Notes: generated from the letters alone by a model not told the origin. 64,000 nt of DNA from an uncultured Candidatus Saccharibacteria bacterium (GCA_964468315.1 CAYXTA010000002.1:319-64318), one strand, 5' to 3'. Positions 20,101-59,042 are shown, numbered from the stretch's first letter. Numbers and translations are program-made.

Positions 20101-21390
20101 TTATTTATTTTGAACAGGGTTTTCTATTAAATAATCTCTTTCATTTGACCAACTTGCTTCATGTGAAGTTATAGCGTTATATACTGCTTTTAAGAGCCAA
20201 ATTGGGGCTAAAACACTGTATATAACCAAAAAAACTGGAATGTCCCAAGAAGTATACTTTCCCCTGCCATAGATCATTTTTCTACCATTAAGCAATCCAG
20301 CAATAACCAAAATATACAATATTATAGATATAAACACAAAAGCCTTTGTACTTAGAAAGAAAAGATTAAAAGAAAATAAATTACCACCCAAAACATGAAA
20401 ACCAACAGCCTGAGATTCTAAAACTTTTTTTGCTACATACTCATACAACCTTGTGAAAGAAAAAAACAAAAGAAATATCGTACCAGTAATAGAAATAATA
20501 CCTGATGGTAATGTAAAGATTCCGATAGTTCCATATTTAGGACGGAAAAATAATTCTCTATAATCAAAAGCATTTCTTATGAAACCATAAATCCAACGTA
20601 CGCGCTGACGATATAATTTAGGTATACTATTTGGACTTCCTGTATACACATAAGCATCTGGACAATGATCTATCTTCAAACCATTCTTTTGCATTCGAAG
20701 AGCTATTTCTTGATCTTCCGTATGGTGTGCTTTTCTGTAAATACCAATTTTATCAAATACTGTTTTACGAAAAATAGAAAAAGGACCAGGAGTTACGTGT
20801 ATACCTCCTAAAAATGCCAACATTTTTTTATTGTAATGTGCCATATCATATTCTGCACGTTGTGCGTACTGGAGAATATTTTTTGGATTACGAACTACTA
20901 TACTAGGAGCTACAGCCATTGTATCTTCATTTACAAAATAACTCATTATCCTTTTTAAGGATTCAGGGTGAACAGTAGAATCAGCATCAAGACAACCAAC
21001 AAATTCTGTTTGAGTATTTTCTAAGCCCTTGTTTAAAGCATTATGTTTCCCTACTTTTTTTTCTTGAAAAATTCTTATTTGAGAATTTTTTTCTAAATTT
21101 TGTAAAACATTCCAAGTGCCATCTTTGGAAGCGTTATCTACAACAATAATTTCTAACCTATCTTTTGGGTAATCAAGTTCGAGCAACGAATCAATAGTAT
21201 TTAAAACGGTTTTCTCTTCGTTATAGCAAGGTACTATTATGGTAACAGTTGGATACTCATTAAGCGTAATAGCATCTTTTCTGATTATGATTTTTTTTCT
21301 ATTTTCAAAAAAAGTAACAAGTAAAAAAACTTGCACGTAAACGGCCAAAAAACTAACTATGTAAAATAAAATACCAAAAACTGAAGCCAT
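20101..21390 (-). CDS. Processive family-2 glycosyltransferase (PgaC/IcaA/cellulose-synthase-like) with integrated TM helices.
   Basis: 429 aa. GT2 signatures 'IIVPCYNEE', 'VVDNASKDGT' and 'CLDADS', the processive motif Q-R-V-R-W ('YRQRVRWIYG'), and N- and C-terminal TM segments. Confidence 0.8.
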   Translation of the reverse strand: MASVFGILFYIVSFLAVYVQVFLLVTFFENRKKIIIRKDAITLNEYPTVTIIVPCYNEEKTVLNTIDSLLELDYPKDRLEIIVVDNASKDGTWNVLQNLEKNSQIRIFQEKKVGKHNALNKGLENTQTEFVGCLDADSTVHPESLKRIMSYFVNEDTMAVAPSIVVRNPKNILQYAQRAEYDMAHYNKKMLAFLGGIHVTPGPFSIFRKTVFDKIGIYRKAHHTEDQEIALRMQKNGLKIDHCPDAYVYTGSPNSIPKLYRQRVRWIYGFIRNAFDYRELFFRPKYGTIGIFTLPSGIISITGTIFLLFFSFTRLYEYVAKKVLESQAVGFHVLGGNLFSFNLFFLSTKAFVFISIILYILVIAGLLNGRKMIYGRGKYTSWDIPVFLVIYSVLAPIWLLKAVYNAITSHEASWSNERDYLIENPVQNK

Positions 21391-23165: not shown

Positions 23166-24467
23166 TTGTGTATAATCAATAAATATATGGAAAAATGGCG
23201 TAAAAGTATACTTTTTATTGGTGATGGACTTTCTCTTTGTCTGGCTGGATACTTGATGTTAATAAGTCGTTTTGGTTTACCGAAGGCAACAGAACAAATC
23301 CCCCTGCACTTAAAACCATTCATAATTTGGGGTATTTTAGTTTTTCTAATTTTCTATATTTTTAATTTGTACGAAGTAAGTGCGCTAAAACCAACACTCA
23401 ATAACATAAGACAATTTATTTTTGCAATCATTGTAAGTGCAATAACAGGAATAATATTATTTTATATTTTCCCTTTTTCTGTTACACCAAAAACAAATTT
23501 AATCATAACTCAACTATACTTTACTTTTTTCATTTTAATTTGGAGAAGATCTTTCTATCGTCTTTTTTCAAAAAAATTCAAAAACAATATTGCGTTTATA
23601 GGAGAAACACCTGAATCAAAAATACTTATTAAAAACATAACAGATAATCCTCCTATTGGATATGAATACAAAGGTACTTTTGAAAATTTTGAAATGCTGC
23701 AAAAAAGTAATTTTAAAATAAATACGGTTGTATATGCTTCTAGTAATAGTAATATTGATTTATTAGAACTAAGTAGATCAAATTATATTCACTTAGATAT
23801 AAACAAGGCTTTTCAGATTATTCTTTCTAAAATACCAGTTGAACTTATGAATGATGTAATTGCTCTTGATATGCTTGAAGATAGAAAAAATATTCTATCT
23901 AAAACAATAGAAAGGTTTTTAGATATATTTTTTTCTGTATTAGTGTTAATAATAACTCTCCCAATAACAATAGTTACTTCATTTTTAATATACACAGAAG
24001 ATGGTAAAAATATTTTTTACAAACAAAAACGTATCGGGTTAAAAAATAAAGAATTCTCAATAATAAAATTTCGCTCAATGAAAATTGATGCCGAAAAAAA
24101 TGGAGCTGTATGGGCGAGCTCTGAAGATATACGCATAACTCGTATAGGAAAAATAATACGCAAACTTCACATCGATGAAATACCTCAAATGATCAATATT
24201 CTTCGTGGTGATATAACACTCGTAGGGCCAAGACCAGAAAGACCAGAATTCGTAAATATGCTTGAAAAAGAAATTCCATATTATTTTTTAAGACACACAA
24301 TAAAACCCGGATTCACTGGTTGGGCTCAAATAAAATATCGATACGCTCGCACCATAGAAGATTCAAAAGAAAAATTTGAATATGACTTACACTATATAAA
24401 AAACAGAAATTTTTTTCTTGATATGGGAATTATTGTGAGAACAATACAAATAATATTTACTCATTAA
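23166..24467 (+). CDS. Polyprenyl-phosphate hexose-1-phosphate transferase (WbaP/bacterial sugar transferase family), the initiating enzyme.
   Basis: 433 aa. The N-terminus is multi-TM. The C-terminal 'bacterial sugar transferase' domain reads 'KRIGLKNKEFSIIKFRSM...ITLVGPRPERPEF'. The real start may be the ATG at 23187. Confidence 0.85.
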   Translation: MCIINKYMEKWRKSILFIGDGLSLCLAGYLMLISRFGLPKATEQIPLHLKPFIIWGILVFLIFYIFNLYEVSALKPTLNNIRQFIFAIIVSAITGIILFYIFPFSVTPKTNLIITQLYFTFFILIWRRSFYRLFSKKFKNNIAFIGETPESKILIKNITDNPPIGYEYKGTFENFEMLQKSNFKINTVVYASSNSNIDLLELSRSNYIHLDINKAFQIILSKIPVELMNDVIALDMLEDRKNILSKTIERFLDIFFSVLVLIITLPITIVTSFLIYTEDGKNIFYKQKRIGLKNKEFSIIKFRSMKIDAEKNGAVWASSEDIRITRIGKIIRKLHIDEIPQMINILRGDITLVGPRPERPEFVNMLEKEIPYYFLRHTIKPGFTGWAQIKYRYARTIEDSKEKFEYDLHYIKNRNFFLDMGIIVRTIQIIFTH

Positions 24468-24503
24468 ACTGGAAAAAAACCTATAAAATGCTAGTATAGA
24501 ATT

Positions 24504-25331
24504 ATGAGCCACACTCATACTACAGTTATAAAACCTAAGAAATTATTTAGTTTTTCTGACCTAAAAGAAATATGGGAATACAGAGAATTGCTCTATTTTT
24601 TCACATGGAGAGATTTAAAAGTACGTTATAAACAAACAGTTATCGGTGTACTTTGGGCAATATTGCAACCATTTATCACAATGGTAGTATTTACTGTTTT
24701 TTTTGGTGGTTTATTAAAAATTTCTTCTGACGGAGTACCCTACCCTATTTTTGTTTATACCGGTCTTTTGTTTTGGCAATTTTTTTCTTCTGCTCTTACA
24801 GATACGAGTAATGTGCTAATAACAAATCAATCAATAATCACAAAAGTTTATTTCCCAAGACTTTTACTTCCCCTTTCTTCTGTAATGACAAAATTTATTG
24901 ATTTTGCATTTGCTTCGATAATACTAATCGGTATGATGTTCTATTATGGATACACTCCAAACCTTTTAGGATTATTAATCCTCCCCCTTCTTTTAATAAT
25001 CACATTTATGGCTTCAGTCGGTCTTGGCCTTTTTCTCGCTTCAGTAAATGTAAAATACAGAGATGTACGTTATGCTTTACCATTTTTTATACAAATACTT
25101 ATGTTTGTCACACCAGTTATTTATCCAGCAGGAATTGCAGGAAAATATTCTTGGATACTTGCACTCAACCCCATGATGGGTGTCATTCAAAGTGCTCGTG
25201 CTGCATTACTTGGAACAACGGTTCTAAACTGGACATTAGTTAGTATTTCACTTTTTGCTACTTTTATCTTTATGTTATTCGGAATTTACACATTCAAAAA
25301 AACAGAAAGATATTTTGCTGATTTAATTTAA
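24504..25331 (+). CDS. wzm: ABC-2 type polysaccharide export permease (Wzm/TagG-like).
   Basis: 275 aa with six predicted TM helices and an ABC-2 family profile. It sits immediately upstream of the cognate ATPase. Confidence 0.8.
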   Translation: MSHTHTTVIKPKKLFSFSDLKEIWEYRELLYFFTWRDLKVRYKQTVIGVLWAILQPFITMVVFTVFFGGLLKISSDGVPYPIFVYTGLLFWQFFSSALTDTSNVLITNQSIITKVYFPRLLLPLSSVMTKFIDFAFASIILIGMMFYYGYTPNLLGLLILPLLLIITFMASVGLGLFLASVNVKYRDVRYALPFFIQILMFVTPVIYPAGIAGKYSWILALNPMMGVIQSARAALLGTTVLNWTLVSISLFATFIFMLFGIYTFKKTERYFADLI

Positions 25332-25335
25332 ATAT

Positions 25336-26574
25336 ATGGAAAAACCAATAATACAAGTAAAAAATATAGGTAAGAAATACAACATTAATCATCAAAAAAT
25401 TGGTTATGTTACACTACGAGATAAAATAACAAATGTATTTGTGAATCCTTTTTCTTTTTTAATAAATAAAATTAAACAAGTCGCTGGTATAGGAACAAAA
25501 GAAGAATTTTGGGCATTAAAAGATATAAATTTTGAAATAAAAAAAGGTGAAGTTGTAGGTATTGTTGGCCAAAATGGTGCAGGAAAATCTACATTATTAA
25601 AAATACTTTCACAAATCACTCCACCGACGACCGGAGAGATCAAAATCCACGGTACTGTTGGGAGTTTACTTGAAGTTGGAACAGGTTTTCATCCAGAACT
25701 TACAGGAAGAGAAAATATATTTTTAAATGGTGCTATTTTGGGTATAAAGAAAAAAGATATAATAAAGAAATTTGAAAAAATCGTAGAATTTGCAGGTATT
25801 GAGAAATTTCTAGACACTCCAGTAAAATACTACTCTAGTGGAATGTATGTTCGTCTCGCCTTCTCTGTCGCAGCTCATATGGAAACAGATATATTGATTA
25901 TTGATGAAGTACTCGCTGTTGGTGATGCTGAATTTCAAAAAAAATGCCTTGGTAAAATGGAAGATATTACAAAAAACCAAGGACGCACTATTTTATTTGT
26001 TAGTCATAATATGGAGGCAGTTAAAAAAATATGTGAAAAAGTTATTTGGTTAGAAAAAGGATCTGTAAAAGATATTGATAGTACAGAAAAAATAATAAAA
26101 GAATATTTAAATCAAAACAATGATGGTGTGTCTGAAAAATGGATAAATAAAAATAATGTTAAAGAAAATATTTTCTTTAAACCAGAAGTTTTTGAAATAA
26201 TAAGAGAAGATAAAGATATATATATAAAAATAGAAGCAGAAATAAAAGAAATAAATAAAGAGTTAACAATAGGATATGCTTTGTACACAGAAAATATGGA
26301 ACTTTTATACTGGTCATATCAAACAGATGACAATGATATTGAATTAAAAGTTGGTAAAAATATTTTTCAATCAAAACTACCATTAGAAATTTTAAACAAT
26401 GGAAGATATATAATAGAATTAATCGGTGGTATACATGGAAAAGAATGGTTTTTTGAACCAAATAAAGGAAACCCAACATTAATAGTCGAAATAAATAAAG
26501 AATTTAATAATAAACCATTCTGGATTAACCAAAGACCTGGAATATTAGCACCAAAAATATCATGGAAAATATAG
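25336..26574 (+). CDS. wzt: ABC transporter ATP-binding protein (Wzt/TagH-like) with a C-terminal extension of about 170 aa.
   Basis: 412 aa with Walker A 'GQNGAGKST', signature 'YSSGM', and Walker B 'ILIIDE'. The C-terminal extension resembles a Wzt substrate-binding domain. Confidence 0.85.
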   Translation: MEKPIIQVKNIGKKYNINHQKIGYVTLRDKITNVFVNPFSFLINKIKQVAGIGTKEEFWALKDINFEIKKGEVVGIVGQNGAGKSTLLKILSQITPPTTGEIKIHGTVGSLLEVGTGFHPELTGRENIFLNGAILGIKKKDIIKKFEKIVEFAGIEKFLDTPVKYYSSGMYVRLAFSVAAHMETDILIIDEVLAVGDAEFQKKCLGKMEDITKNQGRTILFVSHNMEAVKKICEKVIWLEKGSVKDIDSTEKIIKEYLNQNNDGVSEKWINKNNVKENIFFKPEVFEIIREDKDIYIKIEAEIKEINKELTIGYALYTENMELLYWSYQTDDNDIELKVGKNIFQSKLPLEILNNGRYIIELIGGIHGKEWFFEPNKGNPTLIVEINKEFNNKPFWINQRPGILAPKISWKI

Positions 26575-28031
26575 AAATATATAAAAAGAATATCACTTCC
26601 CAATGGGGAGAGGATGGAATCACAGAAGAAATATTTAAAAGAATCAGTACAAAAGAAAGATTTTGTATAGAATTTGGGGCTTGGGATGGAAAACATTTAA
26701 GTAATGTATGGAACTTATGGCATGAAAATAATTGGTCTGCCCTTTTAATAGAAGGCGATGAGAAAAAATGTAAAGATTTAGAAATATCAGTTTCTAAATT
26801 TCCAAAAGTAAAACCATATTGTGCATTTGTAAAAAAAGAAGGTGAAAATTCTTTAGACAAAATATTAGCGAAAACATTTCCAAATAAAGAAATAGATTTA
26901 CTCTCTATTGATATAGACGGAAATGATTATTACATATTAGAAACTCTCATAGCTAAACCAAGAGTAATCATAATTGAATATAATCCTACAATACCTGTGA
27001 GTTTAGATTTAGTGCAAGGAGAAGATCAATACTTTGGTTCTTCTGCTTTATCTATCAATACTCTTGCTCATCAAAAAGGTTACAAATTAGTATGTATTAC
27101 TGAAACAAATATGTTTTTTGTAAGAGAAGACGAATTTTCAAAATTAGGAATAGATGAGCCTGTACTTGAAAAAATTTTTATTTCAAAACACCTAACATAT
27201 ATAATAACTGGGTATGACGGAACTCCTGTATTAACACAAATACCTACATATAATAATATTCTTAAACTTACAAAACGTGAGATAAATTTCAAAAATGTTA
27301 AACTACCAACAATAAATTTTTCAATATATAAATCAACAAAATCATATATAAAAAATATTACAATTATTTTAGAAAAGATATTGTTAAAAATAAGTCTTTT
27401 TTTTAGAAAAAATAAAAAAGAAGATGAGCAAACAAAAAGAGTTATTCCTTGGTTTAAAATAGATGGAGATAAAACATTAAGAATAAATTATGAGCTTAAT
27501 GGTTCTTCTGTTGTTGTTGATGTTGGTGGATACGAGGGACAGTGGTCAAGTGATATTTTTGCAAAATACCAATGTACTATACATATATTTGAACCAGTAA
27601 AAAGTTTTTTTGAGAAAATAAAAGAAAGATTTACTAAAAACAATAAAATAAATATATATAATTTAGGACTTTCAAATAAAAACAGAGAGATGTCTATCTC
27701 TTTATTAGAAGATAGCTCTTCTTTGTTTAAAGAAGACGCTAAAAATGAACACATACTAGTAACTGATGCTTCAATCTTTTTCAAAGAAAATAATATTGAT
27801 CATATAGATCTAATAAAAATTAATATAGAAGGCGGTGAATATGATTTACTGGAAAATCTAATTGGAACTGGATTTATTTCAAAAATAAAAAATATTCAAG
27901 TACAATTTCACGATTTTGTACCTAACGCAAAAGAAAGAATGTTACAAATTCAAAAAGAATTAGAAGAAACTCACCACATCACTTACCAATATGAATTTGT
28001 TTGGGAAAATTGGGAAATAAATGAAAAATAA
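26562..28031 (+). CDS. Tandem FkbM-family SAM-dependent methyltransferase with two FkbM-like modules.
   Basis: 489 aa. Module 1 has 'CIEFGAWDGKH...IDLLSIDIDGNDYYILE'. Module 2 has 'VVVDVGGYEGQW...IDLIKINIEGGEYDLLE'. Confidence 0.65.
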   Translation: MENIEIYKKNITSQWGEDGITEEIFKRISTKERFCIEFGAWDGKHLSNVWNLWHENNWSALLIEGDEKKCKDLEISVSKFPKVKPYCAFVKKEGENSLDKILAKTFPNKEIDLLSIDIDGNDYYILETLIAKPRVIIIEYNPTIPVSLDLVQGEDQYFGSSALSINTLAHQKGYKLVCITETNMFFVREDEFSKLGIDEPVLEKIFISKHLTYIITGYDGTPVLTQIPTYNNILKLTKREINFKNVKLPTINFSIYKSTKSYIKNITIILEKILLKISLFFRKNKKEDEQTKRVIPWFKIDGDKTLRINYELNGSSVVVDVGGYEGQWSSDIFAKYQCTIHIFEPVKSFFEKIKERFTKNNKINIYNLGLSNKNREMSISLLEDSSSLFKEDAKNEHILVTDASIFFKENNIDHIDLIKINIEGGEYDLLENLIGTGFISKIKNIQVQFHDFVPNAKERMLQIQKELEETHHITYQYEFVWENWEINEK

Positions 28032-28833
28032 TTTAAATATAGAAATTTCAAATATTTCAGTTGTTATACCTAATTGGAATGGAGCAAAAACGCTTGAGAA
28101 TGTTATTAAAAGTTGCATAAATCAAACATTAAAACCTCTTGAGATACTTATTTGTGATGATGGATCAACAGATAATAGTAAAGAAGTTGTAGATCAAATA
28201 AATAATGATTTAGTTAAATGGATTCCACTTCCACACTCTAGAACACCAGCTATTCCTAGAAATAATGGAATAAAAATAAGCAAAGGAGAATGGATTGCTT
28301 TCTGTGATAGTGATGATGAATGGTTGCCGACAAAATTAGAAAAACAAATAAAAAAAGCTTATGAAACAAAATGCAAAGCTATCTGTACTAATGCAATAAG
28401 AAAAATAAATGGTATAAATATAATTGGAAATATGATCAATTATAAAAAAGAAAAAATATCTTTTAATGATTTATTAAATAGCAACAGTGTTGTGTGTAGC
28501 TCATCGATGATTCATAAATCAGTTCTTGAAAAAGTTGGCGGATTTTCAGAAGCAATAGAATACGGCAGTTATGCCGATTTTATATGCTGGCTTAGAATAA
28601 CCACTCAGACTAATTTTGCTTTTATTAATGAACCCTTGGTTATATATGACGACCACCCACAAACAAGTATACGGGCAAATGAAACATCAGCGGAAAGAAT
28701 AAAAATCCTAGCCTTAGATAATTTTATAATATGGTCAAAAAAAATGAATCTCCCCTATTTCAGATATCTTATAAAAAAGAATCTTATAAAAAATAAATTA
28801 TTAAATTTAATCAAAAAAATAATTCATGCTTAA
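28021..28833 (+). CDS. Family-2 glycosyltransferase.
   Basis: 270 aa. 'ISVVIPNWNGAKTL', 'ILICDDGSTDNS' and 'CDSDDEW' are GT-A motifs. Confidence 0.8.
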   Translation: MKNNLNIEISNISVVIPNWNGAKTLENVIKSCINQTLKPLEILICDDGSTDNSKEVVDQINNDLVKWIPLPHSRTPAIPRNNGIKISKGEWIAFCDSDDEWLPTKLEKQIKKAYETKCKAICTNAIRKINGINIIGNMINYKKEKISFNDLLNSNSVVCSSSMIHKSVLEKVGGFSEAIEYGSYADFICWLRITTQTNFAFINEPLVIYDDHPQTSIRANETSAERIKILALDNFIIWSKKMNLPYFRYLIKKNLIKNKLLNLIKKIIHA

Positions 28834-29539
28834 AACAAAATTAAAAAATATAATAAAAAAAATATTCTACAAAAAAAACAAAAATGTCTTAATCAGTAAC
28901 ACTGGAAAAGAATTTGAAGTTAATAATTGGGTATTATCGGAATTTATTATTGATAAAATCATTCCAAGTGTTGGATTTCACCCATTTCCATTAAATGAAC
29001 TAATGCTTATGTCTGGGGCTATTTGTTTTATAAAACCAACTCATTTATTTGAATGGGGTACGCACTTTGGTAAATCTGCAAGGATATTTCATGAAACAGC
29101 TCGTTATTTTAATATCGAAACAGAAATACATTCTATCGATTTACCTGAGAATATAGAACACAATGAGCACCCACACAAAGAAAGAGGTAAATTTGTTAAA
29201 AAATTTAAAAATGTATCTCTACACTTAGGAGATGGATTAGACACTTCCCTTTCTATACTAAAAGGAAAAGAGGGTAAAAAAATAATACCACTTTTTTTTC
29301 TTGATGGTGATCATTCATATGAATCAGTAAAAAGAGAGCTCAATGGGATTTTTGAAAAATACCCTCAGTCAAACATTATAATACACGATACATTTTTTCA
29401 AACAAAAGAAAGCAATTATAATATAGATCCATACGAGGCTGTAAAAGAATTTTTAAAAGATAAAAATGATGTTTTTGTATTAATAGACACAAAGACAGGT
29501 TTACCTGGAATGACATTGCTTTTAAATAAAAAAATATGA
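28826..29539 (+). CDS. Class I SAM-dependent methyltransferase (Methyltransf_24/CmcI-like).
   Basis: 237 aa. 'FEWGTHFGKSARIF' and 'FFLDGDHSYESV' match the Methyltransf_24 pattern. Confidence 0.55.
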   Translation: MLKTKLKNIIKKIFYKKNKNVLISNTGKEFEVNNWVLSEFIIDKIIPSVGFHPFPLNELMLMSGAICFIKPTHLFEWGTHFGKSARIFHETARYFNIETEIHSIDLPENIEHNEHPHKERGKFVKKFKNVSLHLGDGLDTSLSILKGKEGKKIIPLFFLDGDHSYESVKRELNGIFEKYPQSNIIIHDTFFQTKESNYNIDPYEAVKEFLKDKNDVFVLIDTKTGLPGMTLLLNKKI

Positions 29540-31119
29540 AAATAGGAATACTTTATATATGCACTGGTAACTACACTATCTTTTGGAAAGAATTCTATTT
29601 GAGTATGGAGAAAAATTTCATCAACGATTCCGAAAAACATTATTTTGTATTTACTGATGGAGATAAAATAGATTTTGAAAATGAAAATCCAAGAATTCAT
29701 AAAATATATCAGCGTGACTTGGGCTGGCCTGATAATACATTAAAAAGATTCCACGTATTTCTAAAACATGAAAGAAAATTGGCAAATATGGATTATTTGT
29801 TCTTTTTTAATGCTAATTTGCTCGTATTAGAAAAAATTACTCAGGAAGAATTTTTACCTATTAACAATGAGAATCTTGTTGCAGTATTACATCCAGGATT
29901 TTATGACAAAAATAGAAATAAATTCACTTATGAAAATAATAAAAAATCTACTGCATATATATCACCGGAAAAAGGAATACAATATTTTGCAGGAGGATTG
30001 AATGGTGGAAAAACAGCAGAATTCATTAATGCAATGAAAACAATGAAAGAGAATGTATACATTGATACGGAAAACAAGATTATAGCAAAATGGCATGATG
30101 AATCACATTGGAATAAATACTTAATAGACCAAAATGATATAAAAATACTAGGGCCAGAATACCTTTATCCTGAAGGATGGAATTTGCCTTTTAAACAAAA
30201 AATATTAATACGAGATAAAAATAATTATGGTGGACATAATACATTACGAAAAAAACAGGAAACAAAAACTGAAGTATTGATTAAAAAAATAAGGAACTTA
30301 ATGACTAAGATTAGAAAGAATCTTCCGAATTTTGGTAAACTCTTATTTTATAAATACAAAAAAGCATTAATTTTAGATAATGGAGTAGAAATTTTTAATA
30401 CTAATTTACTCATTACAACAATTGCTTTTAATAATCTCGATATACTAAAAATACAGTACCCGCAATTAAAGAAAAATTTAAAAGATGAATTTATATACAT
30501 GATTGCTGATAATTCATCAATATTCTCTTTGTCAGAAGAAATAAAAAACTATTGCATAAATGAAAAAATACCTTATATAAAACTACCGCCAAACCCATAT
30601 AAAAATCCAAGTAAATCACACGGAATTGCTCTCAATTGGGTTTATAAAAATATAATAAAAAAATACGAACCACATTTTTTTGGTTTCTTAGATCACGATA
30701 TATTCCCTTACAAAGAAACATCTGTAATTCCAGATATACAAAATAATGTATTTGGTTTAATACAAGAAAGAGAAAATAAATGGTATCTATGGGCAGGATT
30801 TTGTTTTTATAATTTTAAAAATTTAAAAAATATTACTATGAATTTCATGCCATCAAAAGGCCTCGATACTGGTGGATCAAACTATTACATCTTATATAAA
30901 AATATTAATAAAAATAATTTAAAAAAATTACCTCAAATATATATCGATACTAAAATAGAGAAAAAAGTGTTAGAAATAAATAATTCAAATACAGCTACTA
31001 CTATAGAATGCATAGGTGACTGGATTCACTTAATGAGAATCTCGAATTGGAATGACCAAAAAAATAATAAAACTGATTCTATAGAAAAAATAATTTCTTT
31101 AGCAAAAGAATTGTCATAA
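29536..31119 (+). CDS. GT6-family alpha-1,3-Gal/GalNAc-transferase (bacterial NXN type) fused to a roughly 280-aa C-terminal domain, possibly a second GT-A module.
   Basis: 527 aa. The N-terminal half aligns with ABO/alpha3GalT enzymes: 'HYFVFTDG', 'LHPGFY', 'FTYE', 'YFAGGLNGG', 'WHDESHWNKYL' and 'GPEYLYP'. The DXD position is NAN ('FFFNANLL'), as in metal-independent bacterial GT6. The C-terminal half contains 'IADNSS' and 'GFLDHDIFP' (a DxD-like motif). Confidence 0.75.
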   Translation: MKIGILYICTGNYTIFWKEFYLSMEKNFINDSEKHYFVFTDGDKIDFENENPRIHKIYQRDLGWPDNTLKRFHVFLKHERKLANMDYLFFFNANLLVLEKITQEEFLPINNENLVAVLHPGFYDKNRNKFTYENNKKSTAYISPEKGIQYFAGGLNGGKTAEFINAMKTMKENVYIDTENKIIAKWHDESHWNKYLIDQNDIKILGPEYLYPEGWNLPFKQKILIRDKNNYGGHNTLRKKQETKTEVLIKKIRNLMTKIRKNLPNFGKLLFYKYKKALILDNGVEIFNTNLLITTIAFNNLDILKIQYPQLKKNLKDEFIYMIADNSSIFSLSEEIKNYCINEKIPYIKLPPNPYKNPSKSHGIALNWVYKNIIKKYEPHFFGFLDHDIFPYKETSVIPDIQNNVFGLIQERENKWYLWAGFCFYNFKNLKNITMNFMPSKGLDTGGSNYYILYKNINKNNLKKLPQIYIDTKIEKKVLEINNSNTATTIECIGDWIHLMRISNWNDQKNNKTDSIEKIISLAKELS

Positions 31120-31124
31120 AAAGA

Positions 31125-31955
31125 TTACCAGTATTTTTGATACAGTTTAAACATTTTATTAAAAGAAATACGAAAAGGAAGTTTAACAAAAAAACCATAA
31201 ACAATAATACGAGCTAAGGCACGAAGATATGAAATGAGATAATTTGGATATTTACCTTTAAAATGTTTTATTACTTTAAAAATTTTCTTATATTGTTCTA
31301 TCTTATTTTGTGCACTAATACTTGCATCATGTAATTTAAATCTAACAGAATATGATGATAGGTTTGAAAATTTACCACAAAGTCCAAGACGAAGCCAAAG
31401 ATCATAGTCTTCAACGTGACGTGTATTTACAGACTCATCATAACCACCTATTTTTAATACAACATCTTTTCTAAAAAGAACACTTGAATGTATAAAACAA
31501 TTTTTTCCAAGAATTGTTTTTCTTATTTGAATATCTTTTTCTGGTAAGAAGTATCTGAATAATTCATTATTATTTTCATCAACAATAATCACTCCCGTAC
31601 CAACCAAAACATACTCTTTATTTTTTTCTAAAAACAAAACTTGCTCACTTAATTTATTTTGATCAATCCAAACATCATCGTCATCAATACGAGCTATATA
31701 TTCCCCTTTTGCTTCTCGGAGTCCCTTATTGAGTGTTTTTTGAATACCAAGATTTACTTCATTTTTAATATATTTAATTCTGGTGTCTTGCTTTACAAAA
31801 GTATCAACAATAAAAGCTGTATTGTCCTGTGAGCCATCATCGAGCACCAAAAGCTCCCAATTACTGTATTTCTGGTCTAAAACGCTCTGTATAGCCATTT
31901 CTATACGTTTAGAGCCGTTATATGTTGGTAATATAATTGATACTAATTTATCCAT
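31125..31955 (-). CDS. Family-2 glycosyltransferase.
   Basis: 276 aa. 'VSIILPTYNGSKRI', 'LLVLDDGSQDNT' and 'RIDDDDVW' are GT-A motifs. Confidence 0.8.
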   Translation of the reverse strand: MDKLVSIILPTYNGSKRIEMAIQSVLDQKYSNWELLVLDDGSQDNTAFIVDTFVKQDTRIKYIKNEVNLGIQKTLNKGLREAKGEYIARIDDDDVWIDQNKLSEQVLFLEKNKEYVLVGTGVIIVDENNNELFRYFLPEKDIQIRKTILGKNCFIHSSVLFRKDVVLKIGGYDESVNTRHVEDYDLWLRLGLCGKFSNLSSYSVRFKLHDASISAQNKIEQYKKIFKVIKHFKGKYPNYLISYLRALARIIVYGFFVKLPFRISFNKMFKLYQKYW

Positions 31956-31959
31956 ATTT

Positions 31960-32811
31960 TTATAGTTTTATCCATTCGTTAGGTATTAAATCACTGGTAT
32001 CTATTGATGTATCTGGAAACCAATTTTTAGGTGCGACAACAATTTTGTCTTTATTATCAGAAAGCCATACAGCCCACCAAGAAAATGAACTGTTTGAAAT
32101 AACAAAATTTTTACACTGACTCATTAAGAATAAATGCCCTGTATCTTTTATTCCTAAATATTCATCTCCTACAAACATCACAGGTAAATCAAATTTTAAA
32201 TTATTTTCACACCACTTTATATCATCAGAAAAAACATATATTTTATCTATTTTTTTATTTTTATAAATATAATCAATACCATTTTTATAATAATCATTAT
32301 TCACAACTTCATGATGTTTATTACCAACAAAATCTCCTCTACGTACATGCAAACAGAGTGATTCGTTATTTGAAATTTCTTTAGCAACTTCTTGTATATT
32401 TTGTGGTAAATTATTTTTTAATGTAAAATCTTTACGTATAATATCTTCAAAACCAGAAAAATATTTTGGTGACTGAAAATATCCATCTAAATAAACATCT
32501 TTTCCTAAATCAAAAAATCTTAAATCAAAGTTAAAAGAATTCTCTTTTCCTTTATTTTTCATAAATCTAGAAAAAAAATAATTAAATAAACTGTTTCGAT
32601 ATATAATTGGTATATCTAATTTCCTTGCTATATCTCCTTGTATATTAAAAACATCCAAACTATAAATTCTTTTTGTTACTCCTAATAAATTTAAATCAAA
32701 AAAAGAAGTATCAAATTTTAACTCTGTATTATTTTTTATCGATAAAACTCGTCCCAATGCATATTGAAACATTTGATTACCCATTCCACCTTGTAGTCTG
32801 ACAATAATCAT
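31960..32811 (-). CDS. GT11-family alpha-1,2-fucosyltransferase.
   Basis: 283 aa. The N-terminus 'LQGGMGNQMFQYA' and 'LHVRRGDFV' (the HxRRxD motif) are the GT11 (FutC/WbsJ-type) signatures. Confidence 0.85.
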   Translation of the reverse strand: MIIVRLQGGMGNQMFQYALGRVLSIKNNTELKFDTSFFDLNLLGVTKRIYSLDVFNIQGDIARKLDIPIIYRNSLFNYFFSRFMKNKGKENSFNFDLRFFDLGKDVYLDGYFQSPKYFSGFEDIIRKDFTLKNNLPQNIQEVAKEISNNESLCLHVRRGDFVGNKHHEVVNNDYYKNGIDYIYKNKKIDKIYVFSDDIKWCENNLKFDLPVMFVGDEYLGIKDTGHLFLMSQCKNFVISNSSFSWWAVWLSDNKDKIVVAPKNWFPDTSIDTSDLIPNEWIKL

Positions 32812-32815
32812 AGTT

Positions 32816-33706
32816 TTATTTTTTTAACTCTAAAATACCTTCTTCTAAAGTAATTTTCGGCGACCAATCAAGAAGTTCTTTTACTTTTACAATACTTGCG
32901 CTTGTAGCATATGGCTCAACTCTTTTTTCAATATATACAACTTCCCCACCGATGAGTTCTGCGATTTTATTTATAGAATACGTTTCATTAGTTCCTATAT
33001 TTATTACTTCACCATTACCGACTTTTTCTATTTTCATAGCCATAATATTTGCTTGAGCAACATCAGCAACATTTATAAAACTACGAGTTTGATTACCATC
33101 ACCAGTTATTGTTAGAGGTTTACCTTGTTTATACAAATCTACAAATTTCGCAACAACACAAGGATATGCACCACCGATACTTTGTCTTAAACCGTAAACA
33201 TTAAAATACCGAAGCGATACAGTTTCGACACCATATAAATCTGCCCACAACTTACAATACACTTCACCAATATATTTATGTGCACCATACGGAGAAAGTG
33301 GATTTGAATTCATTGTTTCTATTAAAGGCAAAGTATCTTGATCACCATATACAGCACTTGATGCTGCAAAAATAACTCTCTTAACTCCATTCAAACGTGA
33401 AGCTTCTAAAACATTGAGTAAACCTGTAACATTTACATCGTGTGTTTCTATAGGATTCTCTATTGAATACTGCACTTGTGGCATTGCAGCTTCGTGAAAA
33501 ACATATTTCACATCTTTAAATATTTCTACTAGTTTTCCTTTATCCCTGATATCTACATTATGGAAAATTGCTCGGGAATTAACATTTTCAATTTTCCCAG
33601 CTGATAAATCATCAACAATATGCACTTCATAATCAAGCTCAACTAAAGCATCTACTATATGAGATCCTATGAAACCAGCTCCGCCTGTGACAATAATTTT
33701 TTCCAT
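32816..33706 (-). CDS. NAD-dependent epimerase/dehydratase (UDP-hexose/UDP-HexNAc 4-epimerase-like).
   Basis: 296 aa. Rossmann 'VTGGAGFIGSH', catalytic 'YGAHKYIGE' (YxxxK), short-chain SDR-e architecture. Confidence 0.8.
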   Translation of the reverse strand: MEKIIVTGGAGFIGSHIVDALVELDYEVHIVDDLSAGKIENVNSRAIFHNVDIRDKGKLVEIFKDVKYVFHEAAMPQVQYSIENPIETHDVNVTGLLNVLEASRLNGVKRVIFAASSAVYGDQDTLPLIETMNSNPLSPYGAHKYIGEVYCKLWADLYGVETVSLRYFNVYGLRQSIGGAYPCVVAKFVDLYKQGKPLTITGDGNQTRSFINVADVAQANIMAMKIEKVGNGEVINIGTNETYSINKIAELIGGEVVYIEKRVEPYATSASIVKVKELLDWSPKITLEEGILELKK

Positions 33707-33712
33707 ATATAA

Positions 33713-35725
33713 TTATAATTTAAAACCTGGTATATCTTTCTCTGCTTGTTCAAGTGCTTCTTTGTAAAGTTTTTGATCTCCTTTATTTTTAGCAAAATTA
33801 ATAAAAAATCTATGTGATACTGAAATACTTGGATCTAATGTTATAGCATCTCTATACGCTTTTTCAGCACTACCCAAATCTGTAGTCCATGAATACACTT
33901 GGGCTATTCTCCAATAAACTTCTGGATTACTAGGTGAAATAGTGAGGGTGTGATCTAAAATTTCAAGGATATGTTTACGAGTATTTTCATCATTTGGAGT
34001 ATCAGACAAATATGCTCTGGTGTTGTACAAATCAACAATAGAGATATTCAATCTGTAATCAGTAGGGTTTTCATTTCTGACAATTTCAAGATATTTCAAA
34101 AAATTATCTAAATCTTTTAAGATATACGGTAAGACTTGTTTATTATTTTTTATTGCAACAGCATTTTTAAAAAGTGAACCAAATGTATCGTGTGCTAATC
34201 CACCAATATCCCAAACATCTCCAACAACAGACCCGCCTGCCAGTTCATTGAACGGCTTATTAATTTGTTTACTAAAAACCCTACCGATTGTATCTATTTT
34301 TTTATAAGGTCGATACAAAAAGAATACTAAAGAAATACTACAAAAAATAAGAAGTACACCAACGATAAGGTTTTTAGCATATTGATCAGTTATTTTAAAC
34401 TTGTTATTTTCTATAGAATTATCTTGTAATCCAAAAATAATTCCAACAAAAGAAAATAGCACCATAAAAGATAAAACTGAATCAAAGAAAAATAGATTTT
34501 GAAATACATATCCTACAACTAATCCAAAAAACAATGAGGCTTGCAAGGTGGTCAATATTTCTTTTTCTTTTAATTTATACAAACAAAATAGTATTGAGAG
34601 AATAAAAATAAGATAAAAGATAATTGCTGGATACCCTGCAGAAGCACCGATGTCATAATAAATATTGTGAAATCGATCTGCATATCCTTCATAGTTATAT
34701 TCAGCAAGTAACATCTTTGGGTTAAAATGTGCCTGAAATGCAATTGCCTGATTTTCAGGACCATAGCCAAACCATGGATGTTCATTCATAGACTTCTCTG
34801 CAGTATCCCAAAAAATAAAACGTGTACCAGACGCTACTTGCGTAAATTTCTGATGGAGCTCCGTGTTCGGTGTCACAAGCTGTTTCCAGCCAAACACAAA
34901 AACAATGAGACTAAGAACAATCCCTGTTATACCTAAAAAATGAAATGTCTTTTTCTTTGATAATGCTAAACATCCTAAACCTGTCGCACCTGTGCCAATA
35001 ATAATACCAAGTAATGCTCCACGGGCATTACCGAGCAGACTTCCCCCGGTAAATAAACCGTAAATATTTATAAAAATTGGAGAAAAAATAATCGTAGCTA
35101 AAGCTATACTAATTAATATTTTTGTTTTTTTAGATATATCCTTGAAAGTTAAAAGAAATATACCAAACACAAAAACAAACATCAAGTATGCAGCTGCTAC
35201 TGATGAGTTTCCTGTAAGTCCACCTCCTCCATCAGTAGTTAAAAATTTATATGGTAAATGAAATCCTCCTGAACCAAACCATAAAGATAATGCAAGAATA
35301 AAACCACCAGCAATAAACCATTGTAAAAAATTTTGTATATACTCTTTACCATAGCGATACGTGAGTGAAGCAACAATAAATGTAAATAATAAAGAATGGT
35401 AGAGTGTGAGCAATCCTGTACCACGGGAAAGAGTAGACCAAAATGAAAGATTTGAATCAACAGCCAATATTCCAGCAATTGTCATCCAAATTAAAAAACC
35501 AATAGCTGGTAAAAACCAAAGTAGTGTTTTCTTTGGTAAACGATATGATGGGTCAACTGTTATGGTGTAAATTAAAATACAGACAAGAATATCTACAACA
35601 CCATAAAAAAAGAATGGTTTTGAAGAAAGATGCGGGTATATTCTACTACCGACATAAATAAGCGGTAAAATAAATACAAAAAAATAAGTACCATATTTCA
35701 AAATATTTTTACGAAATAAATCCAT
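33713..35725 (-). CDS. O-antigen ligase/Wzy_C-family polytopic membrane protein with a C-terminal TPR-repeat domain.
   Basis: About 670 aa from the ATG at 35725 (the ORF track extends to a GTG at 35764, which would overlap the upstream terminator). At least 10 TM helices. Wzy_C-like periplasmic loop 'FIFWDTAEKSMNEHPWFGYGP'. C-terminal TPR-like repeats ('AEKAYRDAITLDPS'). Confidence 0.7.
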   Translation of the reverse strand: MDLFRKNILKYGTYFFVFILPLIYVGSRIYPHLSSKPFFFYGVVDILVCILIYTITVDPSYRLPKKTLLWFLPAIGFLIWMTIAGILAVDSNLSFWSTLSRGTGLLTLYHSLLFTFIVASLTYRYGKEYIQNFLQWFIAGGFILALSLWFGSGGFHLPYKFLTTDGGGGLTGNSSVAAAYLMFVFVFGIFLLTFKDISKKTKILISIALATIIFSPIFINIYGLFTGGSLLGNARGALLGIIIGTGATGLGCLALSKKKTFHFLGITGIVLSLIVFVFGWKQLVTPNTELHQKFTQVASGTRFIFWDTAEKSMNEHPWFGYGPENQAIAFQAHFNPKMLLAEYNYEGYADRFHNIYYDIGASAGYPAIIFYLIFILSILFCLYKLKEKEILTTLQASLFFGLVVGYVFQNLFFFDSVLSFMVLFSFVGIIFGLQDNSIENNKFKITDQYAKNLIVGVLLIFCSISLVFFLYRPYKKIDTIGRVFSKQINKPFNELAGGSVVGDVWDIGGLAHDTFGSLFKNAVAIKNNKQVLPYILKDLDNFLKYLEIVRNENPTDYRLNISIVDLYNTRAYLSDTPNDENTRKHILEILDHTLTISPSNPEVYWRIAQVYSWTTDLGSAEKAYRDAITLDPSISVSHRFFINFAKNKGDQKLYKEALEQAEKDIPGFKL

Positions 35726-35754
35726 AAAGGCATTATACCGTAAAAATACAAAAC

Positions 35755-35785
35755 AAAAAAGCACTCATTTCTGAGTGCTTTTTTG
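35755..35785. terminator. Terminator downstream of the surface-protein gene (minus strand).
   Basis: gcactca-tttc-tgagtgc flanked by an A6 and a T6 run. Confidence 0.55.
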
Positions 35786-35829: not shown

Positions 35830-37875
35830 TTAGTTATTGATATATACAGCGTTAGTTCTAAATGCGTCTACAGGTAACAATGTATTAACAGCAGAACCTA
35901 AGCCAAGACCAGCATCAGTAAATGTTTGGATTGTCTTAAGTTGTACACGGTAATAAGTGTTAAGTGTAACAGGACCAGTTAGAGTAACGTTCACAGTAAA
36001 GTGCTTAGCACTTCCTGATGGAAGCATAAAGCCTGTTCCTAGAGCGTTAGCAGTAGCATCATTACTTATGATAGTGTGTGATGCTGTACTTGTCCAGTCA
36101 TTTGAGTAAGAACCTGAAGCTGCGTTTTGGAATACGAATGCAATTGCACCAGAACCTGTTGATGTAACAGCTTCTTGTGTTGATTGACCGATGTATGCAT
36201 CGTTACCGAAAGCAGTGATTGTCAATGGGATACTGTATGAAACTGAAGTTATGTCACCGTTTGAAGCAACAGTTGTTGAAGTAACAACAGAGCCCATAAC
36301 TGTGTTAACACCATTTTCACGTAATGTCATAACATTACCTACAGCTGAACCAAGACGTAATGCTGAATCACTGTCTGTTAATTGATCACCATTTTTGTCT
36401 TGTACTGAGAAGTTTGCAGCAAGTAATACGTCAGCATTAGCTACTGAAGCTACGATTGTTGTACCGTCTGAGTAAGAACCAGATGTCTTTGACTTAAGAT
36501 CAGCAACAACACTGAATTCTACTGTAGAACCAGCAGTTATTGTTTGTGATGATAAGTTAACAAATTTGTAACCAGTTGAAGTTGCACCAGCTGTTGGTGT
36601 AGTTGTTATTGAAGTTGAAATAGTGTAACCATTTGAACCATCAAGTGTATCAACTAAATCAGAACCTCTGTAAAGTTTCAATGTGTTGATAACAGCAGAG
36701 CCGTTAGCACCAACAGTTGTAACTTGAACAGGAACTTTTCTTAGACTCAAGTCAGTATTTGTAGCTTTAACTGTGAATTTAAGTAATGTTTGTCCGTTTG
36801 TTGCAGAAGTGTTTCCAACACCTACGATTGAAGATGATGGATTTGATGTTGATAGACCAACTGTAGCTTTGATACCATTTGAAACAAATTTACCAAACAT
36901 TAATCCTGTTTGTTGTAATCCTGTAGTACTTGGAGAAACAACATCAACATATGTGTCATATGTACCATCTGGTGATGATGCACTTACTCCTCCAGCTGTA
37001 AATGTAACTGTCCAGTTACTATCTGTATCACCTGAATCAAGTGATCCATTAGTATTAACAGAAACATAGAAACGACCAATAGAATCTTTTGCTATTGGAG
37101 CGTTTAATCCAGCGAAGTTGAATGTGTAAATATCACTTGATGTAGCACGATCAGCATCAGCTACTGACATAGTAGCTAATTTTGTAGAACCATTCCATAG
37201 TGAAACACTAGAAATGTATTTTCCAAGATTTGCAGAAGAGTTAGTAAGTGAATTTACAAAAGTAACACGAACGCGGTTAACATTTTGTGAAGACAAACGA
37301 GCTGTTGCACGGAAACCAGCTACAACTTTGTCTGTTTCTGATTCATAAACTGTTGAAACACGGTTTGTTGAATCTAAAGCAATATCAGCTAAGTAGCCGT
37401 TTGTTCCTGATACAACTGAAGTTGAACCTGAACATGAAGCACCAGTTGTTGAACTGAACATAGCACCTGCAGCACAACCAGCAACTGTTGAAGTTGAAGT
37501 TGAACATGGAGCACCAGTTGTTGAGTTAAACATAGCACCTGCAGCACAACCTGAAGTTGTAACTGGTGATGTTGAACCACCTGCTAATTTAGCACGTGAC
37601 ATTGAACCGAATAGACCTGTTGAAGGTAATCCGTTTGCAGCTTGCCATGCTACCACAGCTGCTTTAGTTATAGAACCGAAGTATCCTGTTGCAGGAGATA
37701 CACCGAGTGTATTTTGCAAACAAGTAACTTGACTGTTTCTCATACCTACACTAAGACTCATAGTGATTGAACAATCAGCAGCAGAAACTGATTTTGCTGA
37801 AGCAAAACCACCACCGATAACTAATCCAAGCATCATAACTCCAAGAAGGATTTTTGATTTGAATAATTTACTCAT
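35830..37875 (-). CDS. Secreted Ser/Thr-rich cell-surface protein. It has a signal peptide, an N-terminal peptidoglycan-binding-like domain, two Cys-containing tandem repeats and a long beta-rich S/T-rich region.
   Basis: 681 aa. Signal 'MSKLFKSKILLGVMMLGLVIGGGFASA'. 'CLQNTLGVSPATGYFGSITKAAVVAWQAANGLPSTG' resembles PG_binding_1. The tandem repeat is GCAAGAMF(N/S)STTGA(P/S)CS. The rest is very rich in T/S/G/A/N/V. Confidence 0.75.
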   Translation of the reverse strand: MSKLFKSKILLGVMMLGLVIGGGFASAKSVSAADCSITMSLSVGMRNSQVTCLQNTLGVSPATGYFGSITKAAVVAWQAANGLPSTGLFGSMSRAKLAGGSTSPVTTSGCAAGAMFNSTTGAPCSTSTSTVAGCAAGAMFSSTTGASCSGSTSVVSGTNGYLADIALDSTNRVSTVYESETDKVVAGFRATARLSSQNVNRVRVTFVNSLTNSSANLGKYISSVSLWNGSTKLATMSVADADRATSSDIYTFNFAGLNAPIAKDSIGRFYVSVNTNGSLDSGDTDSNWTVTFTAGGVSASSPDGTYDTYVDVVSPSTTGLQQTGLMFGKFVSNGIKATVGLSTSNPSSSIVGVGNTSATNGQTLLKFTVKATNTDLSLRKVPVQVTTVGANGSAVINTLKLYRGSDLVDTLDGSNGYTISTSITTTPTAGATSTGYKFVNLSSQTITAGSTVEFSVVADLKSKTSGSYSDGTTIVASVANADVLLAANFSVQDKNGDQLTDSDSALRLGSAVGNVMTLRENGVNTVMGSVVTSTTVASNGDITSVSYSIPLTITAFGNDAYIGQSTQEAVTSTGSGAIAFVFQNAASGSYSNDWTSTASHTIISNDATANALGTGFMLPSGSAKHFTVNVTLTGPVTLNTYYRVQLKTIQTFTDAGLGLGSAVNTLLPVDAFRTNAVYINN
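37421..37565. repeat. Tandem direct repeat (2 x ~72 nt) inside the surface-protein gene.
   Basis: ...gaacatgRagcaccagttgttgaRYtRaacatagcacctgcagcacaacc... occurs twice in tandem, encoding the duplicated GCAAGAMFxSTTGAxCS motif. Confidence 0.6.
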
Positions 37876-58233: not shown

Positions 58234-58914
58234 CTACTTGCGAACACCCGCGAACCACCAGTAGTCACCCCAGTCACCGTCATAACGGCGGACACTCAGG
58301 TCCCGCTCGTCAACATCGCGGCGGAAAACGGCATAACACCACTTTCCATCTCCATCTTTCCATTGAGTTCCGTTAGGATGCTCATCGGCAAAAGCAGGGT
58401 CAGCTTCGTTTACTGCGGCTTGTGAATACGGATCGGCAGGTTTTAATCCACGCAATGCATATTCTTTTTCCAGGTCATCCATACTTATCTGGCGTCCGAT
58501 TTTAAAGAAGATAACTTCTGTTTCTTCGGTTTCGCCTTTGGGTATTGTTTTCAGCACGCTGTCGTCCACATACTGGTTTCTGCCAGTAGCTTTCAGAGCT
58601 TCTTTGGCAGAACGGTTGCGGTTTACTTTTACAACGCGGATAATCATATTCGAGATTGCTTCAACGCGTTTGCGGATTACAGCAAATAGCTCACCTGCAA
58701 GTTCGGGGATGCCCAGAACTTGTTGTATAAGATTGCTGGGAAGCTCGGCTTTGTGCTTCTGCAATTTTGCGTTTAACAACTCTTTTAACTTACCGATTTG
58801 ACCCTCGGTAATGGGTTCTGATGGGGTTATGGTCTTTTCCATAGCGTCATAGATTTGATTTGATTGCGTCCCGCAATAGAGGGCTAGACAGTCGTAGTCA
58901 TAGCTAGGAAACAT
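58234..58914 (-). CDS. Hypothetical protein encoded in a compositionally foreign GC-rich island.
   Basis: 226 aa from the ATG at 58914 (the ORF track starts one codon earlier at a TTG). Local GC is markedly higher than the flanks. The C-terminus is Trp/Asp/Gly-rich ('WKDGDGKWCYAVFRR...YDGDWGDYWWFAG'). No family recognised. Confidence 0.55.
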   Translation of the reverse strand: MFPSYDYDCLALYCGTQSNQIYDAMEKTITPSEPITEGQIGKLKELLNAKLQKHKAELPSNLIQQVLGIPELAGELFAVIRKRVEAISNMIIRVVKVNRNRSAKEALKATGRNQYVDDSVLKTIPKGETEETEVIFFKIGRQISMDDLEKEYALRGLKPADPYSQAAVNEADPAFADEHPNGTQWKDGDGKWCYAVFRRDVDERDLSVRRYDGDWGDYWWFAGVRK

Positions 58915-59042
58915 CAAATGATTTAATGTCTTTTAGCTATGACTACAAGTAGTACTTATTGGGAAAGAACCTTAATTACTAGGATTAAGTATAGCATAGA
59001 TGGTGGTAAAAGTCAATGATAAATACTCTTGTAAATTAAGCC

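Follow-up and report, generated by a model that had tools for sequence, protein, structure and literature searches.

A GT6-GT11 surface-glycan locus in a Patescibacteria bacterium, with a predicted blood-group-A-like product

Can a bacterial gene cluster in which a family 6 glycosyltransferase (GT6) lies close to a family 11 fucosyltransferase (GT11) be expected to make a glycan like those of the ABO(H) blood groups? This question is raised by positions 23166-35725 of a 64-kb stretch of DNA (64,000 nucleotides, hereafter the window), for which a first-pass annotation had proposed such a product. The genes of the cluster were assigned to families with Pfam and NCBIfam profiles against curated cut-offs. 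In our view, at a probability of roughly 60%, the locus serves the ABC (ATP-binding cassette) transporter-dependent assembly of a surface glycan in a Patescibacteria bacterium, with GT11 and then GT6 building a blood-group-A-like motif.

The GT6 gene (29536..31119, + strand) encodes a 527-amino-acid (aa) product that passed both PF03414 (120.1 bits, cut-off 25) and NF041524 (303.4 bits, cut-off 250). The first-pass annotation had given the whole gene to GT6; the family held, but the domain covers only aa 1-240 (29536..30255, +). This part matched the full catalytic domain of BoGT6a from Bacteroides ovatus (PDB 4AYJ/4AYL) with an E-value of 1.6e-76, and human GTA/GTB at about 1e-28. N92-A-N94 aligns with N95-A-N97 of BoGT6a, at the position of the DxD motif of the vertebrate enzymes; this NxN type is the metal-independent bacterial form known from BoGT6a (PMC3516806, PMC3961637). 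The catalytic glutamate, E189, lies in a W-H-D-E-S motif and was invariant across 23 homologues. The substrate-binding residues of BoGT6a were taken from PMC3516806 and PMC3961637, and all of them are identical in the aligned window protein: H122, G124, T134, Y153, W189, E192, I228, K231, H239 and R243 of BoGT6a correspond to H119, G121, T131, Y150, W186, E189, I225, K228, H234 and R238, respectively. The set that binds a 2'-fucosylated galactose acceptor (H119, G121, T131, Y150, W186, I225 and K228) is thus kept; the small residues at the G121 and I225 positions leave space for the 2'-fucose, both positions being Trp in the non-fucose alpha3GT (PMC3516806).

The GT11 gene (31960..32811, -; PF01531, 1.8e-34) scored 119.8 bits against a cut-off of 23.9, with profile positions 35-295 of 298 matched, and its predicted linkage is alpha-1,2. 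All the signature motifs are present in the translation, namely GGMGNQMFQYA, HVRRGD and SNSSFSWWAVWL (for GGxGNQMFQY, HxRRxD and SxFSWW), including the GDP-fucose donor-binding motif HxRRxD. Homologues in Nomurabacteria, Paceibacterota and Minisyncoccia carry the NCBI name alpha-1,2-fucosyltransferase, and a sequence search of the PDB with GT11 gave no match. An identical GT11 (P0267) occurs on an NCBI contig of 129,627 bp. Compared with its counterpart in the related locus L084 (88% aa identity; related loci and proteins are cited by L and P labels), the ratio of nonsynonymous to synonymous substitution rates (dN/dS) of GT11 was 0.13. The profiles thus placed both genes in the families that the first-pass annotation had named, and the motifs that it had quoted (LHPGFY, FTYE, WHDESHWNKYL, LQGGMGNQMFQYA and HVRRGD) were all read in the translations. 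The other genes that it had listed were also found at their positions and in their families, with scores well beyond the curated cut-offs.

GT6 and GT11 stand on converging strands at a distance of 841 bp, and the interval holds a single GT2 gene. The distribution of this pairing was followed in a survey in which one genome per species was scanned and the best 80 loci were annotated with phmmer. A GT6 relative was encoded in 442 stretches of these species-representative genomes, and in 65 of the best 80 loci a GT11 gene lay within 10 kb of GT6 (in 31, within 100 bp); the 15 loci that lacked a nearby GT11 were mostly short contigs or contig ends. About 20 of the 120 best protein clusters were single-chain GT6-GT11 fusions, two of which were confirmed by Pfam, and in relatives GT6 was also found fused to FkbM/FtsJ methyltransferases and to Wzy_C. 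The linkage across loci and the natural fusions are strong comparative evidence that GT6 and GT11 would act on the same glycan. Together with the conserved catalytic glutamate, the fucosyl-galactose-binding residues, the GT11 motifs and its low dN/dS, they support the order of action, GT11 and then GT6, that had been suggested for this locus.

The pathway that we propose would begin with the Bac_transf enzyme, which would start the glycan on undecaprenyl phosphate, and would continue at the cytoplasmic face, where two GT2 enzymes, GT11 and a bifunctional GT6/GT-A enzyme would extend it. GT11 would add fucose in alpha-1,2 linkage to a beta-galactose, and the NxN GT6 domain would then place an alpha-1,3-N-acetylgalactosamine (GalNAc), or less likely a galactose, on the same galactose, which would give a blood-group-A-like trisaccharide; UDP-Gal and UDP-GalNAc would be supplied by a 4-epimerase. 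The FkbM and Methyltransf_24 methyltransferases would cap the non-reducing end, the C-terminal binding domain of Wzt would read the cap, and Wzm/Wzt would export the lipid-linked glycan, which a Wzy_C/TPR protein would transfer to an acceptor at the surface; the Ser/Thr-rich wall-anchored protein encoded next to it is the most plausible one. Family memberships, conserved active-site residues, gene linkage across genomes and the fold of the extra domain are observed, and all donors, acceptors and linkages, like the methyl cap and the protein acceptor, are predictions.

The route of export is indicated by the transporter genes. None of the 13 open reading frames (ORFs) of the locus matched a flippase (Wzx) family in Pfam or NCBIfam, and the locus carries a Wzm-type ABC-2 permease (24504..25331, +; PF01061, 2.7e-16; best NCBIfam match, the galactan Wzm/RfbD model) and a Wzt-type ATPase with a C-terminal extension (25336..26574, +; ABC_tran, PF00005, aa ~55-260); therefore the glycan should be finished on the cytoplasmic side. 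Wzm is 82-97% identical across related loci, and Wzm and the Wzt ATPase together 77-99%. The extension is all-beta and about 150 aa long, and in a structure comparison it matched the Wzt carbohydrate-binding domains 2R5O, 5HNO and 6O14; it is probably such a domain. Across related loci it occurs as discrete types at 20-30% identity, and the FkbM-type methyltransferase encoded next to it (26562..28031, +; two-domain, S-adenosylmethionine-dependent; PF05050 in two stretches, TIGR01444) switches type alongside. Between the window and L003, for example, Wzm is 94% and the Wzt ATPase 89% identical, whereas the tail reaches only 28% and FkbM 39%. This suggests that the tail and FkbM form a matched cap-and-reader module. 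FkbM is a candidate chain-terminating O-methylase, and a methyl cap at the non-reducing end, read by Wzt, would fit both the co-variation and the GT6-FkbM fusions of relatives; such a mechanism was put forward earlier for the glycans of S-layers and for E. coli O8/O9a (PMC2943079). The glycan is thus probably methyl-capped and ABC-exported. The joint switch was seen when window 25336-28031 was set against L003 and L006, loci that are nearly identical apart from it.

The Wzy_C protein (33713..35764, -, first ATG at 35725; PF04932, 4.2e-15; TPR_8) has about 12 transmembrane (TM) segments and a C-terminal TPR according to a TM scan and Pfam. The O-oligosaccharyltransferases WsfB and PglL are built in this way (PMC2943079), and the window protein is predicted to be a glycan ligase or an O-oligosaccharyltransferase. 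Beside it a secreted, PG_binding_1-anchored protein is encoded (35830..37875, -; PF01471; 681 aa), with a signal/anchor at aa 4-22 and a Ser+Thr content of 28%, as against a window mean of 12%; the local GC content is raised there (0.38), and the gene keeps its place next to Wzy_C in the Patescibacteria relatives L002, L003, L006 and L084. We infer that this protein is the most likely glycan acceptor and a candidate S-layer-like glycoprotein. One possible alternative, which we consider doubtful but the most probable of those weighed here, is that the glycan is a polysaccharide linked to the wall or to lipid (a secondary cell-wall polymer or a lipoglycan), which Wzy_C would ligate to an acceptor other than protein; in that case a polymer with repeated A-like units, as in E. 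coli O86, may be formed. Both the conserved neighbourhood of the Ser/Thr-rich protein and the oligosaccharyltransferase-like architecture of Wzy_C/TPR speak against it.

The identity of the sugar transferred by GT6 was approached through the donor pocket. At the equivalents of human positions 235/266/268 the window protein has G121/A152/G154, that is G/A/G, as has BoGT6a, a proven GalNAc-transferase (PMC3961637); human GTA has G/L/G and GTB S/M/A at these positions (alignment; PMC4202792). Among the GT6 genes of other genomes the pocket classes were A-G (21), M-G (15), Q-A (4), Q-C (2) and others, the window falling in the BoGT6a class. Since its pocket matches that of BoGT6a, the window GT6 is predicted to be an alpha-1,3-GalNAc-transferase acting on Fuc-alpha1,2-Gal, with an A-type product favoured over B. 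The first-pass annotation had left A and B side by side; by the pocket residues B is the less likely of the two. The sugar nucleotide would come from the short-chain dehydrogenase/reductase (SDR) of the locus (32816..33706, -). Its best PDB matches were UDP-glucose 4-epimerase 4ZRM (7.7e-58), the WbgU entries and a wbpP entry, and GalE was its top NCBIfam model, below the cut-off of that model; since the best matches are UDP-Glc/GlcNAc 4-epimerases, it is likely of this type and a likely source of UDP-Gal/UDP-GalNAc. This epimerase could equally supply UDP-Gal for a galactose-transferring GT6, with the locus and its logic otherwise the same and a B-like or alpha-Gal-like epitope as the product. 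WbnI of E. coli O86, a characterised bacterial GT6, is indeed a Gal-transferase (PMC4202792), and the variety of pockets among bacterial GT6 enzymes (A-G, M-G, Q-A, Q-C) points to a plastic site. The G/A/G pocket of the window is nevertheless that of the GalNAc-transferring BoGT6a, and the bulkier Met/Ala pair of GTB is absent, so that we regard transfer of galactose as unlikely.

Several points weigh against the proposed A-like product and its attachment to protein. The supply of GDP-fucose is one of them. A phmmer search with Nomurabacteria Gmd and Fcl did not find gmd or fcl in any ORF of the 64-kb window, and the roughly 9 kb past its right end, as seen in a strain-variant contig, hold housekeeping genes only and no GDP-fucose gene either; the contigs that extend the left end are at most 2.4 kb long. 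In a Candidatus Nomurabacteria metagenome-assembled genome (L001/L004) the syntenic cluster has gmd (TIGR01472, 556 bits) and fcl (NF047922, 494 bits) directly beside GT11. The two genes also adjoin GT11 in the syntenic relatives L006, L008 and L023, the gene order being GT11-fcl-gmd-SDR in L006 and L008, followed by Wzy_C in L006; the clusters with fcl-gmd between GT11 and the epimerase belong to Nomurabacteria and Paceibacterota, and 10 of the best 80 GT6 loci of the survey also carry gmd and fcl. This neighbourhood in relatives in itself speaks for the use of fucose in the family. The window and its closest relatives (L002, L003 and L084) instead read GT11-SDR-Wzy_C, with a 4-bp gap where fcl-gmd would stand. 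That the SDR is a diverged Fcl or Gmd was ruled out, since it shares only 27% identity with the Fcl and 23% with the Gmd encoded in L001 and its best matches are 4-epimerases. Other points concern the remaining steps. The A-versus-B call stands on three pocket positions and one characterised homologue. The GT11 family also holds an alpha-1,3-fucosyltransferase, HhFT2 (PMC4202792), so that linkage is not set by family membership, although the genetic link to GT6 argues for alpha-1,2. The Wzt tail was modelled from its single sequence with low confidence (pLDDT 59), and a beta-sandwich finds structural matches in many proteins that are unrelated to it. An A-like antigenicity, if there is one, could be hidden by methylation, and the Ser/Thr-rich protein is a putative glycoprotein.

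The missing genes allow another interpretation, namely that GDP-fucose synthesis has been lost and that GT11 and GT6 work on other substrates (another GDP-6-deoxyhexose, a non-fucosylated acceptor), with a product that is not ABH-like. The pair fcl-gmd is missing at exactly the position that it has in relatives, and the GT11 allele has been swapped by recombination, being 52% identical to that of L002 between flanking genes at 82-96%. On the other hand, GT11 keeps the donor-binding motif and is under purifying selection, and the GT11s of gmd/fcl-bearing clusters (350-355 bits) resemble it more closely than do those of L002 and L003; GT6 keeps K228 and, at G121 and I225, the small residues that accommodate the 2'-fucose (PMC3516806). 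The genes gmd and fcl could sit elsewhere in the genome. A supply of GDP-fucose from such genes is the simplest reading, and we judge the loss of the fucosylated product to be improbable, more so than the transfer of galactose. A pseudogene or relic is ruled out by the dN/dS of about 0.13 that was found for GT11, GT6 and the SDR alike.

The remaining genes would complete the proposed pathway. According to the ORF map, the locus consists of two converging operons that meet at 31119/31125. The first begins with a polyprenyl-phosphate glycosyl-1-phosphate transferase (23166..24467, +), the initiating enzyme, whose C-terminal Bac_transf domain (PF02397, 2.7e-63; 213 bits) follows four TM-like segments in a TM scan. 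It had been described as WbaP-type, which holds for the architecture; it passed TIGR03025 EPS_sugtrans (311 bits, cut-off 296) and fell below the cut-off of the WbaP-specific model (175 bits, cut-off 403). After the transporter and FkbM genes come GT2a, an inverting GT2 glycosyltransferase (28021..28833, +; PF00535, 2e-33) that is a variable allele with 56-59% identity to L001 and L002, and a Methyltransf_24/CmcI-like O-methyltransferase (28826..29539, +; PF13578, PF04989), an accessory gene that comes and goes: it is present in L003, L006, L022 and L084 and missing from L001 and L002. The converging operon ends with GT2b, an EpsE-like inverting GT2 (31125..31955, -; PF00535, 1.8e-36), which adjoins GT11 in related loci too. 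These are the only two of the three claimed GT2 enzymes that Pfam recognised within the locus; the third GT-A enzyme proved to be the C-terminal part of the GT6 gene product, which Pfam does not recognise. A further GT2 (20101-21390, -; 429 aa), of the processive synthase type with Glyco_tranf_2_3 and Chitin_synth_2-like matches, was found outside the region just upstream of the locus, a position that it keeps in L002; its product may be a separate polymer.

The half of the GT6 gene that lies beyond the catalytic domain opens with a basic-hydrophobic-basic (BHB) linker read from the sequence, KKIRNLMTKIRKNLPNFGKLLFYKYKK (aa ~241-275; 30256..30360, +), which appears to resemble the BHB membrane-association tail of bacterial GT6 (PMC3516806). 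It is followed by a second glycosyltransferase domain (aa ~276-527; 30361..31119, +) with a GT-A fold and a DxD motif, D386-H-D388, from a family that has no Pfam model. An exhaustive profile-free search returned 866 representative homologues of this domain, mostly standalone proteins of about 270 aa. The gene would so encode a bifunctional enzyme, GT6 joined to an unclassified DxD GT-A transferase. This module can be separated from GT6: it is absent from the GT6 of L008 and L022, forms a separate adjacent ORF in L023, and in L084 (11685-14216; P0006) is part of an 843-aa triple fusion of GT6, the novel GT-A domain and GT2. Certain GT6 proteins that carry this novel domain (P0027, P0046, P0074, P0077; L017) have DxD (DVD/DAD) in place of NxN; bacterial GT6 of this metal-dependent type was considered rare in descriptions from 2012-2014.

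With regard to the organism, the locus and its flanks are 86% identical at the DNA level to L002 and 81% to L003 (the latter labelled 'Patescibacteria group bacterium') and share the DsbA and FtsK flanks with them; on these grounds the assignment to Patescibacteria (Nomurabacteria/Paceibacteria-like) appears sound. The individual genes differ in their affinities (window 31125-35725 compared with L002 and L084). L084 shares 88% identity with the window in GT11 and the SDR but only 42% in Wzy_C, and L002 shares 82-90% in Wzy_C, GT2b and GT6 (Wzy_C 90%) but only 52% in GT11. By these identities the cluster is a recombination mosaic of glycan-locus alleles, a pattern typical of surface-antigen loci under diversifying selection. 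Elsewhere in the window, at 58234-58917 (-), a 227-aa ORF that matched no Pfam family has the C-terminal end RRYDGDWGDYWWFAGVRK. Its homologue in a strain-variant contig (L085, 13522-15968) is followed by bAvd and a reverse transcriptase, a diversity-generating retroelement, in place of which the window has a carboxypeptidase gene; the ORF may be a target that has lost its retroelement. At 56235-58142 (+) one ORF encodes both an S11 D-Ala-D-Ala carboxypeptidase domain and a PGA_cap (CapA) domain as a fusion. The product of 51662-53584 (-), 640 aa long, begins with a membrane segment at its N-terminus, contains a DUF11 repeat and is probably another surface protein.

The first-pass annotation had presented the pairing as notable for such an organism and as a possible sign of host or partner mimicry, and neither suggestion was upheld. 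The pairing is common among Patescibacteria and, more generally, among bacteria of soil, freshwater and the gut. It was met with in Nomurabacteria, Paceibacterota, Parcubacteria, Saccharibacteria, Magasanikbacteria and Minisyncoccia as well as in Bacteroidota, Lachnospiraceae, Neisseria and others, and many of these come from groundwater, lakes and soil. NCBI names such as 'family 6 glucosyltransferase' and 'alpha-1,2-fucosyltransferase' are already assigned to such proteins, and the locus is a further member of a known, widespread and auto-annotated pairing, solid rather than exceptional. No paper combining GT6 or GT11 with candidate phyla radiation (CPR)/Patescibacteria was found in the literature searched. 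In publications of 2012-2014 bacterial GT6 was known from some 25-30 species of Gram-negative bacteria, often symbionts or pathogens of vertebrates (PMC3516806, PMC3961637); with relatives in 442 stretches, including groundwater, lake and soil lineages, this picture is too narrow and outdated. Vertebrate-host mimicry is not needed to explain the locus, and the wide range of GT6 weakens it as a general account of bacterial ABH-like glycans.

New in detail are the second, Pfam-invisible GT-A domain in the GT6 gene, the probable glycan-binding tail of Wzt that co-varies with FkbM, and the Ser/Thr-rich wall-anchored protein beside Wzy_C/TPR. Of side interest are this unclassified GT-A domain, the natural GT6-GT11 fusions, which are of possible use in the chemo-enzymatic synthesis of blood-group antigens, and a concrete candidate for a protein-glycosylation system in Patescibacteria, whose glycobiology is essentially unexplored. 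If the predicted chemistry is true, ultra-small Patescibacteria bear an A-type fucosylated surface cap. A far-reaching and highly speculative extension, to which we give less credence than to any alternative above, is that Patescibacteria and many free-living bacteria display genuine, possibly O-methylated A/H-type trisaccharides on wall-anchored glycoproteins by means of modular GT6 fusions (with GT11, methyltransferase, ligase or the unclassified GT-A domain), that these serve in episymbiont-host recognition or phage evasion and not in vertebrate mimicry, and that the environmental pool of NxN and DxD enzymes is the reservoir of vertebrate ABO-type enzymes.

Of the known systems, BoGT6a (PDB 4AYL/4AYJ/4CJ8), a metal-independent blood-group-A synthase, shares with the window protein the NxN motif, the catalytic, acceptor-binding and diphosphate-binding residues and the G/A/G pocket. 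It is a single-domain enzyme of about 250 aa, whereas in the window a BHB-like linker and a second GT-A domain follow GT6. The hosts differ as well, Bacteroides ovatus in the one case and a Patescibacteria bacterium in the other, a group presumed to be monoderm and to lack lipopolysaccharide (LPS). The O-antigen locus of E. coli O86, a blood-group-B mimic, resembles the window in combining GT6 (WbnI), GT11 and GT2-type transferases in one locus. In E. coli O86 the product is a Wzx/Wzy-dependent LPS O-antigen, the donor is UDP-Gal and the GDP-fucose genes lie in the locus; the window has a Wzm/Wzt route, a predicted GalNAc-type pocket and methyltransferases, and the GDP-fucose genes (gmd/fcl) expected of an O86-type locus are absent from its locus, where the sole SDR is of the 4-epimerase type. 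WbnI works on a Fuc-alpha2-Gal acceptor (PMC4202792).

The S-layer glycan (slg) clusters of Geobacillus stearothermophilus and Paenibacillus alvei share with the window a WbaP-like enzyme, Wzm/Wzt export, multi-domain transferases and a Wzy_C protein with TPR, which in them is an O-oligosaccharyltransferase; they also have a methyl cap as terminator, which for the window is predicted (PMC2943079). Their glycans are rhamnans or Gal/ManNAc polymers made without GT6 or GT11, and glycosylation of a target protein is in the window a prediction. In the ABC systems for capped O-polysaccharides, finally, the binding domains (2R5O, 5HNO, 6O14) are like the C-terminal beta-sandwich of the window Wzt, as far as its low-confidence model can be compared. 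Like these systems, the window has candidate enzymes for terminal modification and a putative binding domain that co-varies with the modifier, and its methyltransferases are of the FkbM and Methyltransf_24 types and not WbdD.

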